The position numbers were made by a program. This document shows, one piece after another, positions 33,001-39,000 of a stretch of 64,000 nt of DNA. How positions within the stretch are numbered: the stretch's first letter is position 1; every line of letters starts with the position of its first letter. The stretch comes from Escherichia coli. GTDB taxonomy: Bacteria; Pseudomonadota; Gammaproteobacteria; Enterobacterales; Enterobacteriaceae. The DNA is taken from the NCBI RefSeq assembly GCF_011045215.1, contig NZ_CP049201.1, one strand, 5' to 3'.

Positions 33001-36000
33001 CTTCAGACAGATCCTGATGAAGTAATAAGAATGTTCAGGATGTATGTTGTTTATGTTATCGCATTTATTATCCTCTTTTTATTGTTCTTCTGTTCAGCAA
33101 TAAATAAAACGTCCTCATTGCCATCGGAAAAGGTCACGGTAATTACATTTTTATTGTTAATTACAGTAACGTTATATTCTTCCTTTCAGTTTGCGTTGAA
33201 GAAACAGTATCAAATAAATGAAGTTGATCCTTACATAGTCGCTTCCCGGTTTGCCACATATACCCCTTTCTTTAATCTGAACTATTTTGCACTGGCCGCA
33301 AAGGAGCATCAGAGATTAATGACGATTGCTGATACCATACCTCACTACGAGCTGATGATTACAGACAATAATATTGATGAATTTGTACTGATCATCGGTG
33401 AATCAGCAAGGACTGATAACATGTCCATTTACGGGTATTCGCGCCCAACCACACCAGAACTTCAGAAACAGAAATCACGGCTGAAACTGTTCACTCAGGC
33501 AATCAGTGGCGCACCTTACACTGCGCTGGCTGTTCCTCTGGCGTTGTCTGCCGATAGTGTACTGCATCATGATATCCGTAATTACCCTGATAACATTATC
33601 AACATGGCGAATCAGGCAGGGTTCGATACCTGGTGGCTCAGTGCGCAGTCCGCTTTCCGGCAGAACGGAACGGCTGTGGCCAGTATCGCCATACGGGCCA
33701 GAAACAGAATTTATGTCAGAGGCTATGATGAGTTACTGCTCCCACATCTGGCTGAAGCACTGAACAGTAATCCGGGAAGAAGGAAACTGATTGTTCTGCA
33801 TCTGACGGGCAGCCATGAACCAGTCTGCAGTAACTGGCCCAGAGATAAAGCCGTGTTTAAACCACTGGATACAGAAGAAGTCTGCTACGATAATTCCATT
33901 CATTATACCGACAGTTTGTTGGGGCGGGTTTTCGCCATGCTGGAAACGCGTCAGGCATCAGTCATGTATTTTTCAGATCACGGTCTGGAGTATGACCCGA
34001 CAAAAGAACATGCCTATCTTCATGGCGGAATAAAACCCAGCCAGCAGGCTTATCATGTTCCGATGTTTATCTGGTACAGCCCGGCTCTGGGAGAGCATGT
34101 CGATCGCCAGACGGTGAACAGCGTTTTTTCTACTGCGTATAATGATTATCTGATTAATGTATGGATGGGCGTAACCAGACCAGCTCAACCGAAAACGCCG
34201 GAGGAGGTGATCACCCGCTGGCAGGGGAAATCAAATGTTATTGATGCAAACCATAACGTGTTTGACTACAACGTATTACGAAAGAACTTTAATGAACCCC
34301 TGGAATAATTCGTTAAAGTAATTTACGACTCTATTCTTTTTTAAAGGAAACTTTCAGAAAATAACCCCAGGGCGATAACCTGGGGAAGGGGGTTTAGTGT
34401 GTTATTACTGGTGGATAAATTATTACTTGTTTGAAAAATACACTAATGCAATATCTACTGATGCTGGATGCTTGAGTGTTTCATTCCTGCCGCTGAAAAC
34501 GGCAATATCCAGGGCCAGACATATTCACCGTTAATATTTCTGCATTTCTGTACAATTTCCTCAGAAAGTGTCTCATCAATTCTTTCCCACAACAACTTCT
34601 GCTGTCTTAAAATGCTTTCGCATATTTCGAAATCATCTTCCTGCATCAGCATTTCGGCGCATTTAATGATTTCTGCCCGTTCATGCAGCACAGAGGAATG
34701 GTTATAGAGCCAGTTTACAAACAGCAATGCTTCCGGATATTGTCCCCATAATGGTGAGTATGTTGCATAATAATCTTCGGCAGTATCCGGCCCGGCAGAA
34801 TAGTTATGCCATACAGCAAGAGGAAATGGATGCAGATTTCCGCACAGTATTTCTGCGATGTAAGTATTTGCCGTAAAGCCACGACGAAATGCAGTTGCAG
34901 CTTTTTCCAGTTCCCCATTAAGAAAATGCAGAAGGCCGAGTTCATACCAGTAAGGTGAAAATTCATCAGCGTACTCATTCAGTACACGGAAAGCTCGCTC
35001 ATGATCACCTGTTCGTAACAGTTCTGAACCCAACAACCAGCGGGTACCCTGATTATCTTCAGGATTGTATGCCAGTATTTTCTCAATGAGCATGATGGCA
35101 TCCTGATGACGTTGTAAATGTACATTTGCCAGGATTGCTGCATAAAGCGCGCGCAGATAAGGCCGGTTTTCGGGATGCATCCAGATGATTTCACCACTGA
35201 AACTTTCCGGGATGAGACGATTACCTGCCGCCAGTCCTTTAAGAGCGGCGTTCAGTGCCTTACGCGGGGCATTCTGCTCCAGAAATGCATATGCCAGATG
35301 AGCGTGTATATCAATAAAGTCAGGCTCCTGTTGAGCAAGGCGTCTGAGTTTGTTGATGTAACTCGCCTCACTGATTTCACCAGTATCGTATGTATCAAGC
35401 AGTTTTTCAAACTCCCCCGGTAATGGGCAAAACCAGGTATCCGGAAATACGAAACGCCCTTGGTTATCGTTTACTTTAAAGCGTAATTTGTCGTTCATTT
35501 TCTGAGCCTGTAAAACGGATTGGACACAATCTGAAAAGCATAAAAGTCGTGATGTTGTGTATCAAGTCTTGTTTTTGTCCGGGATGAATGTTGTTTACAA
35601 TATCATCGACAGTGTTTTTATATGAGAATGAAAATTTATCTTTATCTGCATTCCAATGTATTGTGAATTGTCAGCTGAAACAGCATATTAATCGATTTTT
35701 TGATAATGGTGCTGAAATAACGACAGGATGATGATTGAAACTACTGGTATCAAAATTGTTAGCGGTCCATAATGGTGTGATGTTTTGAGATTGTTTATAG
35801 ATGCAATATTAAATATTTTGTCAAAAAACAAAAAATACCTAAAAATAAAGCATAAAAACAAAATTCCTCCGGACCAGGAGGCCGGAGGAGAATTTGTGGA
35901 TTGAGAGAAAATATCAGGACAAGTGCTCTTAACCCTGACTCTCTTGCTTAGAAAGCGAATCAATATAATCTGCGTACCACTGCATCATTTCACGGCGACC

Positions 36001-39000
36001 ATCGAGATACTGGGCATGATTATAGGTACCCCTGATGGCGTTTTTATCCACATGAGCTAACTGCATTTCAATCCAGGCGGAATTAAAGCCCTGTTCGTGC
36101 AGAATGGTACTCATGGTGTGTCTGAAACCGTGCCCTGTGAGTCTTCCCTTATATCCCAGTAATTCAATGACTTGGTTAATGCTTTCCTTACTAATTGGCT
36201 TGCGAGGATCGTTCCTACCGATAAAGACCAGAGGATGATGTTTTGTGATGGGTTCAAGTTGCTTAAATAGGGCAATGACCTGCTCAGAGAGCGGCACAAT
36301 ATGAGGTCGCTTCATCTTCATTACTTTTGCCGGAATCTCCCATAATTTTGTCTCAAAATCGATATCCTCCCAGCGTGCGAAACGTAATTCTTGTGTTCGT
36401 ACACCAGTTAACATAATGATCTGAGTAGCTGTCTTAGTGATGATACTTCCGGTATAACCCGCCAGATCGTTGAGGAAGTGGGGAAGTTCATTAGCAGTAA
36501 GAAAGGGAAAATGTACTTTTTTCGGTGTAGCTAAAGCACAGGCAAGATCGGGAGCAGGGTTGTAGTCTGCCCGACCAGTAACAATTGCATAGCGGAACAC
36601 TTCACCACAGCGCTGGCGGACTTTGCGCATTTTCTCCAGAGCTCCACGTTTTTCCATTTTACGCAGTGCTTCCAGTAACTCCATTGGTTTGATTTCGGCG
36701 ATAGGGCGTTTGCCAATGTAGGGAAAAATGTCTTTTTCAAAGGTATCAATGATTTCATCACGATAGCGTAATGACCACCGATCGGCTTTTGACTGATGCC
36801 ATTCGCGAGCAATGGCCTCGAACGTATTTTTCAAACTCATTTGTTGCGCGATTTTTTCTTCTTTTTTTGCCACCCCTGGATCGCCTCCAGCAGCGAGGAT
36901 TTTTCTGGCTTCGCTGCGTTTTTCACGAGCGTCGGCTAGCGTTACATCGGGGTATACGCCAATAGAAAGCATCTTTTCTTTACCAGCAAAGCGGTACTTC
37001 ATACGCCAGTATTTAGAACCATTAGTGTTAATCAGTAGATACATACCGCCGCCATCAGCAAGTTTATAGGGCTTTTCTTTTGGTTTTGCGGTTTTCACTT
37101 TAATATCGGTTAATGCCATGACATCCTCCGGCTTTTAATGAATTCATGTTCCTGAGGGGGACTTCTGCCAGTAATTAACCTGATACCCCCAATGCACCCC
37201 TTGTATAACAAAGATGTTGTTGAAAGCCGTTGTTATATATCATATTTTACCAATTATGGGGGTGCTGATATTTCAATAGGAAATAATACCCCCTAAAGTA
37301 CCCCCAAAAGCAACTTGATACGGGGTGAAGTCGGTTGACTTCTGGATACAAAGGAATCCTGATATACAAGGGATTAGAAGGGGTGGTTGACATCGGGGGA
37401 GTTCAGAAGATGTTAATTGGCGGAAGATCACAGGAGTCGAACCTGCCCGGGACCGCTGGCGGCCCCAACTGGATTTGAAGTCCAGCCGCCTCACCGGAGA
37501 CGACGATCTTCCGCGCCTCGATTGCTACATGGAGGCGGGGCGCATTATAGCTACTTCCTTGAGTTTCTACATCCCCCAGATCAGTTTTTTCCGCCTAATA
37601 CACGCAGCGTATTATCACGAAAGCATTATAGTTCATATAAAACCCATATTTTACAATGATATATGAGCGGAATTAACGCTACCACGATCACATAAAACAA
37701 GAATCATAAATTAATAACCAGATATCGGAATATTCGCTCTCACAGGGATGGTTTACAAAATGCGTTATCGGTCTCAGCACCCCTATAGCATCAAGGAAAA
37801 GCAGATGAAGAGTGAAGTGTTGTCCGTTAAAGAGAAAATTGGTTATGGCATGGGAGACGCCGCCAGCCACATTATTTTCGATAACGTAATGTTATATATG
37901 ATGTTCTTTTATACCGATATTTTTGGCATTCCTGCCGGATTTGTCGGAACCATGTTTTTGGTCGCTCGTGCACTGGATGCGATTTCCGATCCTTGCATGG
38001 GGTTGTTGGCCGATCGAACGCGCTCTCGCTGGGGTAAATTTCGTCCGTGGGTACTGTTTGGCGCACTGCCATTCGGGATCGTCTGTGTACTGGCCTATAG
38101 CACGCCAGATCTCAGTATGAACGGCAAAATGATCTATGCAGCAATTACTTACACCCTACTTACCTTACTTTATACCGTCGTCAATATCCCTTACTGCGCA
38201 TTGGGTGGTGTAATCACCAATGAACCGACTCAGCGTATCTCGCTGCAATCCTGGCGTTTTGTGCTGGCGACCGCGGGAGGCATGCTCTCTACTGTTCTGA
38301 TGATGCCACTGGTTAATTTAATTGGTGGTGATAATAAACCACTCGGTTTCCAGGGCGGTATCGCGGTCCTTTCCGTGGTGGCATTCATGATGCTGGCATT
38401 CTGTTTTTTCACCACTAAAGAACGCGTTGAAGCACCACCTACAACGACGTCTATGCGGGAAGATTTACGTGATATCTGGCAAAACGACCAGTGGCGGATT
38501 GTCGGTTTACTAACCATTTTCAATATCCTGGCGGTGTGCGTACGCGGTGGAGCGATGATGTATTACGTCACATGGATTTTGGGTACGCCGGAAGTGTTTG
38601 TCGCTTTTCTCACCACTTATTGCGTGGGTAACCTGATTGGTTCCGCACTGGCAAAACCGCTGACCGACTGGAAATGTAAAGTCACTATCTTCTGGTGGAC
38701 GAACGCCCTGCTGGCAGTGATTAGCCTCGCGATGTTCTTTGTTCCCATGCAGGCCAGCATCACTATGTTTGTCTTCATCTTCGTGATTGGTGTGTTGCAT
38801 CAACTGGTGACACCTATCCAGTGGGTAATGATGTCCGATACCGTCGACTACGGCGAGTGGTGCAATGGTAAACGCCTGACCGGGATCAGTTTTGCTGGCA
38901 CGCTGTTTGTGCTCAAACTGGGGTTGGCCTTCGGCGGCGCTCTTATCGGCTGGATGCTGGCTTATGGCGGATATGATGCGGCAGAAAAAGCGCAGAACAG

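Follow-up and report, generated by a model that had tools for sequence, protein, structure and literature searches.

Predicted attachment junction of a selC island

In a 64,000-nt stretch of an Escherichia coli chromosome (NZ_CP049201.1; hereafter the window), positions 35929-37512 hold an integrase gene, a 298-bp intergenic junction and selC, the gene for tRNA-Sec. We propose, with a probability of about 85%, that a selC island has its tRNA-proximal attachment junction here (attL, in the KplE1/P4 convention), and that the GGGGGT 12-mers in this segment are arm-type sites of the integrase. Judged from sequence comparison, the repeated G5/C5 motifs are very probably accessory ("arm") binding sites. 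An earlier note on this DNA had suggested such a role for the motifs, and the suggestion is supported by their match to the repeats of P4, by a corresponding pair on the distal arm of a sister island, and by covariation with the N-terminal domain of the integrase. The features concerned are listed below; offsets of sites are given throughout in the orientation of the tRNA and integrase (int) genes.

37418..37512, minus strand: selC, tRNA-Sec (UCA), from ARAGORN and Rfam (RF01852, 83.8 bits), with the island boundary at its 3' end (37418)
37418..37441, minus strand: core or direct-repeat segment, TTCGACTCCTGTGATCTTCCGCCA, made up of the 24 nt at the selC 3' end; complete islands have a second copy at their far end
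37120..37417, minus strand: junction of 298 bp, the integrase-proximal (P') arm of the attachment site
35929..37119, minus strand: P4-family tyrosine integrase gene, 396 amino acids, apparently intact by Pfam domains and catalytic residues

The tRNA-Sec gene, with anticodon UCA, was the single tRNA gene that ARAGORN found in the window, and its sequence is the same as in K-12 and in OkiPb01695, a strain with an empty selC site (alignment A3). No structured RNA was found in the junction, as Rfam gave tRNA-Sec only. The tRNA gene and int are co-oriented on the minus strand, and the int start codon at 37119 faces the tRNA 3' end at 37418 across 298 bp. The spacing of about 300 bp given in the earlier note was correct, but what lies at that distance is the 5' start codon of the integrase gene and not its end.

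The assignment of the integrase to the P4 type held. Its Pfam domains follow the order Arm-DNA-bind_3 (E-value 3e-29), Phage_int_M (SAM-like core-binding; 7e-36) and Phage_integrase (catalytic; 7e-28), and all exceed the gathering scores. In the translation, the catalytic residues R, K, HxxR, H and Y were assigned by eye to GVRTQELR, MKMKRPH, HGFRHT, LAHVD and RGTYNH. Relatives of the N-terminal domain are present in the PDB (3ju0 and 3jtz).

Repeated motifs in the junction

We counted the motifs in the junction and in the whole window. The junction has three copies of TACCCCC, each on the plus strand, and the window has seven, against about 0.025 expected per 298 bp. The corresponding figures are 6 and 93 for C5/G5 runs (about 0.43 expected), 7 and 50 for GGGGTR (about 0.23), and 4 and 4 for WWWGGGGGT (about 0.018). 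The last pattern was derived from the junction after inspection, so its count is biased and independent support comes from other loci. C5/G5 runs alone are not distinctive, because a count of six is likewise reached by 243 other stretches of 298 bp, or about 0.4% of positions. Of the two motifs named in the earlier note, TACCCCC stands, with its three copies, whereas GGGGGTA has no literal match on the plus strand of the junction, where the inverted copy reads GGGGGTG (37258); the motif is better described as a directional GGGGGT accompanied by inverted copies. A G-quadruplex explanation of the G runs was rejected by inspection, as runs on the same strand lie up to 84 nt apart.

Six candidate arm-type sites were placed in the junction:

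37299..37310, minus strand: site a, CTTTTGGGGGTA, 108-119 nt after CCA, -191 to -180 from the ATG; equivalent to P4 repeat 3954-3965 (113-124)
37287..37298, minus strand: site b, CTTTAGGGGGTA, 120-131 nt after CCA, -179 to -168 from the ATG; equivalent to P4 repeat 3942-3953
37254..37265, plus strand: site c, inverted, TTATGGGGGTGC, 153-164 nt after CCA, -146 to -135 from the ATG; equivalent to P4 inverted repeat 3915-3926 (152-163)
37193..37204, minus strand: site d, candidate G4 variant, ACAAGGGGTGCA, 214-225 nt after CCA, -85 to -74 from the ATG
37184..37195, minus strand: site e, GCATTGGGGGTA, 223-234 nt after CCA, -76 to -65 from the ATG
37152..37163, plus strand: site f, inverted, weak candidate, CTGAGGGGGACT, 255-266 nt after CCA, -44 to -33 from the ATG

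Site b follows site a directly, giving a tandem with a 12-bp period. Site c is invariant in all five full-length junctions of alignment A1, and sites d and e are conserved in the same alignment, O157 included. We also considered whether sets a-c and d-f arose by internal duplication; the local alignment score of 28, compared with 18.4 +/- 3.5 for shuffled sequences (maximum 34), was not convincing.

Three further C/G runs lie near the core, at 37322-37399, and read ACTCCCCCGATG, CCACCCCTTC and TTCACCCCGTATC in tRNA orientation. The block that contains them is shared by selC junctions, and parts of it can be recognised in the arms of KplE1 and P4, but the runs themselves do not fit the arm-site 12-mer. 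These runs are possible core-proximal contacts of the integrase or of a host factor.

Candidate sites resemble the annotated arm repeats of P4

The record of P4 (NC_001609) annotates six 12-mers as "attP arm sequence repeat", with the pattern WWTGGGGGCA. All six share the central GGGGGCA: five were read near the recombination core and the start of int, and the sixth lies inside int. The tandem pair of the P arm, CAGTGGGGGCAC and AAAAGGGGGCAT, is located 54-77 bp before the 20-bp core; that of the P' arm, TCATTGGGGGCA and TAATTGGGGGCA, is located 113-136 nt after CCA; and an inverted copy, CATTTGGGGGCA, occupies 152-163 nt after CCA and overlaps the int ATG. In the window, the tandem pair occupies 108-131 nt and the inverted copy 153-164 nt after CCA. 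Because sequence core, period, orientation and distance all agree, we consider sites a, b and c, together with the distal pair of H10407 described below, to be homologues of the P4 arm repeats.

The likeness extends to the whole arrangement. P4, which integrates at leuX, has an Arm-DNA-bind_3 integrase with the signature ADGGG(L/M)YL...GSKYWRMK and a core formed by a tRNA 3' end ending in CCA, its int gene is transcribed away from the core, and its 12-bp G5-centred arm repeats stand at similar distances. The window element differs in its target (selC, not leuX), in a motif that ends in T(A/G/T) rather than CA, and in an integrase that is 47% identical overall. Its int ATG lies 298 nt from CCA, compared with 152 nt in P4, and the added stretch holds the extra sites d-f. 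It is also a large cargo island, whereas P4 is an 11.6-kb satellite. In a wider comparison of 80 integrase relatives from IMG/VR (57-99% identical), most of those at 57-66% identity have the P4 layout: relative to the int ATG, G5 runs stand at -50 and -38, and a C5 run stands at -7.

The arm motif varies with the integrase N-terminal domain

We compared the integrase with those of P4, of the KplE1 prophage and of P4-like satellites at selC. Identities to the window protein, N-domain signatures and arm motifs are as follows:

Window integrase: 100% overall, 100% in the N-domain; YKLADGGGMYL...NGSKYWRMKYRF; arm motif GGGGGT
P4 Int: 46.9% overall, 58.4% in the N-domain; YKMADGGGLYL...GSKYWRMK; arm motif GGGGGCA
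selC P4-like satellite integrase: 68.1% overall, 56.8% in the N-domain; YTLNDGQGLSL...GSKGWRFRFRF; arm motif TGTATAR
KplE1 IntS: 50.1% overall, 50.0% in the N-domain; YRLLDGNGLYL; arm motif GGGTAAAA

The satellites, 11 kb in size and of the phiR73 type, represent a second selC-specific integrase lineage, with examples in O145 RM12522 (L100, 3378-14530) and IMG/VR (L015). Their core is likewise the selC 3' end, and their arms agree with those of the window element in architecture and distances: a tandem pair of TGTATAR sites lies 114 and 126 nt after CCA, an inverted copy covers the ATG (155-161), and a tandem pair on the distal arm lies 55-73 bp before the distal repeat. In the 15.2 kb of L100, TGTATAR has four forward matches, every one of them at an arm position. 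They differ from the window element in their integrase (68% identical, with another N-domain segment), in the use of TGTATAR instead of GGGGGT, and in their primase and sid/delta/psu genes. Tandem arrays of selC, satellite, repeat and island also exist, as in L017 (1800-2500), where the integrase is 99% identical to that of the window.

Over its full length, the satellite integrase (68%) is closer to the window protein than P4 Int (47%), but over the N-terminal 95 residues the two (57% and 58%) are about equidistant from it. The segment ADGGG(L/M)YL...GSKYWRMK is common to P4 Int and the window integrase, whereas the satellite segment differs. The arm motif thus tracks the arm-binding domain and not the catalytic domain or the target, and such covariation is as expected for arm-type sites. 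The four systems side by side illustrate a general point: the sequence of the arm sites goes with the N-domain, and their spacing is conserved.

KplE1 (CPS-53) offers an experimentally studied counterpart. Its arm-type P' sites have been mapped by experiment, its int promoter lies inside attL, and int is negatively autoregulated (PMC2951348), autorepression by IntS having been described by Panis et al. 2010 (PMC2951348). As in the window, argW is followed by intS in the same orientation (the "STI" shape), and a 12-bp tandem pair of its motif stands about 57-77 bp before the distal core, the same plan as in the window family. KplE1 differs in having an IntS that is about 50% identical, a junction of 161 bp and a known excisionase, TorI, adjoining attR.

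Conservation in other selC islands and on the opposite arm

Islands at selC with P4-like integrases, such as tia-PAI, LEE, PAI I-536 and SHI-2, are textbook material (PMC7545054). The insertion site of the window element is shared with the tia-PAI of enterotoxigenic E. coli (ETEC) H10407, PAI I-536, O157 LEE/IntL, SHI-2 and the selC island of CFT073, whose integrases are 96-99% identical to its own; the values for H10407 and O157 IntL are 99.2% and 95.9%. The junction is 88-99% identical in these and other selC islands, and CFT073, MEI3O-23 and GABEEC132, at 88-93%, retain the G5 blocks. The int-proximal junction was covered by at least 80% in 1,292 genomes, and the distal arm of H10407 had matches in 1,283 of 5,426 genomes.

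The opposite arm is visible in complete islands. In ETEC H10407, a perfect 24-bp second copy of TTCGACTCCTGTGATCTTCCGCCA lies 45.3 kb from selC (L008, 611 and 45873), beyond which the sequence is the exact K-12 flank. Inside the island, 54-77 bp from this repeat as in P4, is a 12-bp tandem pair, ATTTGGGGGTTC TTATGGGGGTTA. Partial core copies are present at other island ends (alignment A2; L017; L100). Alignment A2 comprises seven island ends (H10407, 536 PAI I, O157, BL21, Nissle, 504211 and cS108a); none of them shows any variation in the TTTGGGGGT/TATGGGGGT blocks or in the core, and the sequence farther inside is unrelated in three. This invariant pair is a clear footprint in DNA that was not used to define the motif.

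In O157:H7 strain 9234, the selC-intL junction (L005, 1721-1915) measures 195 bp instead of 298 bp, and the gap of about 103 bp removes sites a-c and leaves the ATG-proximal set. This shorter form could be relevant to why the selC element of O157 is immobile. In O145 RM12522 (L006), arm sequence with a partial selC repeat adjoins LEE without int, and a similar stretch occurs elsewhere in strain AVS0662; these integrase-less stretches of arm plus repeat are att remnants.

Island boundary and host lineage

Identity with the empty selC sites of K-12 and OkiPb01695 stops after ...CCGCCAA, that is, at the CCA(A) of selC, and the sequences beyond are unrelated (alignment A3). Because homology breaks right after CCA(A), positions 1-37417 represent inserted DNA whose boundary is the tRNA 3' end, in agreement with the tRNA-integrated island edge described in the earlier note. 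The G+C content is 32-44% over 29-37 kb, compared with 50-55% in the core flank. The same note had placed the distal end and its repeat outside the window, and this placement holds. We searched 1-37417 for the selC 3' end as a 24-mer and as a 16-mer, allowing up to 3 mismatches, and obtained no second copy, so that the window holds a single one. Two weak repeat matches, at 18270 and 54232, were at chance level and were discarded.

The "empty" sites (L096, 418-700, in K-12; L101, 999-1240, in OkiPb01695) themselves contain about 50 bp resembling the P' arm, followed by a rhuM/yicT pseudogene fragment. On this evidence, the attB flank used as reference seems to be what decay has left of an older island.

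On the core side, the first gene beyond selC is yicJ, placed from the annotation of homologous loci:

37748..39187, plus strand: yicJ

The core genes to the right of selC are yicJ, yicI, yicH, xanP, gltS, recG and spoT. OkiPb01695, which originated from bovine faeces in Okinawa, is the nearest core-genome relative, with 99.9% identity across recG-spoT, and its empty selC site is followed by setC, yicL and nlpA. The recG-trmH-spoT segment (46450-51341) reaches at least 99% identity in just 8 of 5,424 matching complete E. coli genomes, so the source strain belongs to a sparsely sampled, uncommon lineage.

Island cargo

The cargo visible in the window is partial:

1..35928, strand not assigned: island cargo running off the left end of the window, with a tetratricopeptide repeat (TPR) protein, a phosphoethanolamine transferase, a BnzA/BnzB pair, tia, insertion sequence (IS) elements, and a plasmid-like fimbrial and glycosyltransferase module

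The proximal order of integrase, TPR protein, phosphoethanolamine transferase and, farther on, tia is collinear with the tia island of ETEC H10407 (about 46 kb). Between tia and the phosphoethanolamine transferase, leoCBA of H10407 is replaced by the BnzA/BnzB pair, and no homologue of LeoA, LeoB or LeoC was found in the window. The pair consists of adjacent plus-strand genes at 29291-32478, encoding 562 and 499 amino acids without Pfam domains and matching BnzA (3e-188) and BnzB (2.5e-200) in PADLOC; from these matches it is a candidate anti-phage defence pair. IS4-, IS110- and IS66-type transposases separate the tia-like part from the fimbrial module.

The distal 25 kb visible in the window resemble a plasmid fimbrial module and not the H10407 backbone. 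Positions 1-24900 match plasmid A of E. coli strain C5 at 97.6-99.5% identity, so that this IS66-bounded module is common to a plasmid and the chromosomal island. The region contains a Pap/Pix-like chaperone-usher fimbrial operon, PapB and FaeA/PapI regulators, a polysaccharide deacetylase, a GT4 glycosyltransferase, VirK, DUF4056 and a PAPS-reductase/IbrB-like pair. At its left edge, an EAL-domain gene (258-1032) is split into open reading frames of 215 and 72 amino acids; it is intact in contigs L102 (262 amino acids) and L103 (252 amino acids), and the window copy is probably a frameshifted pseudogene. A search with the fimbrial subunit retrieved contigs of about 98% identity that add at least 7.6 kb leftwards, and no selC repeat or arm motif was present in these leftward extensions. 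As for the combination of cargo, none of 5,426 complete E. coli genomes covers at least 80% of window positions 12500-37400 or of 1-12500.

Proposed mechanism and regulation of int

The analysis shows the gene layout, the boundary, the conserved motif cluster with its likeness to the P4 repeats, its presence on the opposite arm of sister islands and its covariation with the N-domain; integrase binding, the position of the int promoter and any present-day mobility of the island are inferences. The recombination core would be the last 24 nt of the tRNA gene, and the 298 bp between it and the int ATG would be the P' arm, brought in from the attP of the element. The arm-type set would consist of the tandem pair at 108-131 nt and the inverted copy at 153-164 nt from CCA, with a second set 65-85 nt upstream of the ATG. 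The P4-family integrase that the island itself encodes would bind all of them through its N-terminal Arm-DNA-bind_3 domain, and its protomers would bridge arm and core sites to form an intasome for integration or, together with an excisionase, for excision.

The int promoter is presumably also within the junction. As it must lie within this same arm, or in the tRNA gene, integrase binding may also repress int. The locus has the "STI" layout, with both genes on the minus strand and a gap of 298 bp; the mean intergenic length of predicted autoregulated units is 208-228 bp (PMC2951348). In EDL933, a gfp fusion to the selC-intL region (-273 to +70) was repressed 4-fold by IntL (PMC2951348). Sites d-f have no counterpart in P4 or in the selC satellites. 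It is conceivable, though we think it unlikely, that the long junction combines two separable sets, in which a-c would be a P4-like recombination set and d-f mainly an autoregulatory operator. If that were so, the length polymorphism of about 103 bp in O157:H7 would be a natural switch that immobilises the island while int repression is kept.

Discussion

Several observations weigh against the interpretation of the junction as an attachment arm that doubles as an operator. In the literature searched, we found no binding experiment for this integrase clade, and searches on selC-integrase arm sites, the phiR73 attP and selC-island excision gave nothing specific to this integrase. A consensus scan of the int strand of the junction gave no sigma-70-like promoter, manual inspection yielded weak candidates only, and the strict pattern for integration host factor (IHF), WATCARNNNNTTR, had no match in the junction; the overlap of promoter and operator accordingly rests on analogy. 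Not all sites can be needed for regulation, because the O157 lineage keeps an autoregulated promoter without a-c. Sites d and f are degenerate, and f is doubtful since it has no T after the G run and is deleted in MEI3O-23 (A1). Finally, tblastn with TorI, AlpA and P4 Vis found no Vis/TorI/AlpA-type excisionase in 1-37417.

How far do these points favour other explanations? An origin of the motif cluster by chance, from the base composition of a short intergenic region, is effectively refuted: equally dense C5/G5 runs do occur elsewhere, in G-rich coding sequence, but the rest of the 64 kb has almost none of the specific 7- to 9-mers, and the motifs are conserved across divergent islands (A1, A2) and keep fixed distances in P4 and dozens of relatives. 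It is improbable, although less so, that the motifs bind another protein, such as a Vis/AlpA/TorI-type excisionase or a host factor, or serve purely as an int operator. The attL arm of KplE1 also has TorI sites overlapping the int promoter (PMC2951348), sites d-f near the ATG could be regulatory only, and the O157 junction with the ATG-proximal set alone still gives a promoter fusion repressed by IntL. However, the motif equals the annotated attP arm repeats of P4 at the same distances, 12-bp tandem pairs occur on both arms, the motif tracks the N-domain signature across lineages, and the visible island yielded no excisionase gene.

The alternative with the most weight, which we still regard as the less likely case, accepts the sites as real and takes the island to be a fixed, immobile remnant whose junction is a fossil of an old integration. 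Consistent with this are the missing excisionase homologue in 1-37417, a mosaic cargo with three types of transposase and a plasmid-derived module, a distal repeat that is not visible in the window, and arm-plus-repeat remnants without integrase elsewhere (L006, L007). On the other side, the integrase reading frame is complete and includes every catalytic residue, other strains have a P' arm 99% identical to this one, and in H10407 the sister island has retained both arms, its perfect 24-bp repeat and a Vis-like gene, the last located 32.5 kb from selC by tblastn. In OkiPb01695, whose flanking core genes are 99.9% identical, the selC site is cleanly empty, and this emptiness in a near-isogenic relative suggests recent gain or loss of the island.

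An attachment junction with integrase arm-type sites is a known kind of system, and current understanding is not challenged by it. The main value of the analysis lies in annotation: the right-hand boundary of the selC island is fixed, and the integrase and the proximal arm look intact. The distal boundary can be searched for with TTCGACTCCTGTGATCTTCCGCCA preceded at 54-77 bp by the pair TTTGGGGGTnnTTATGGGGGT, using TTCGACTCCTGTGATC(TTCCGCCA) as the repeat query. The mapped sites also provide targets for studies of excision and int autoregulation in selC islands such as tia-PAI, LEE and PAI I-536.

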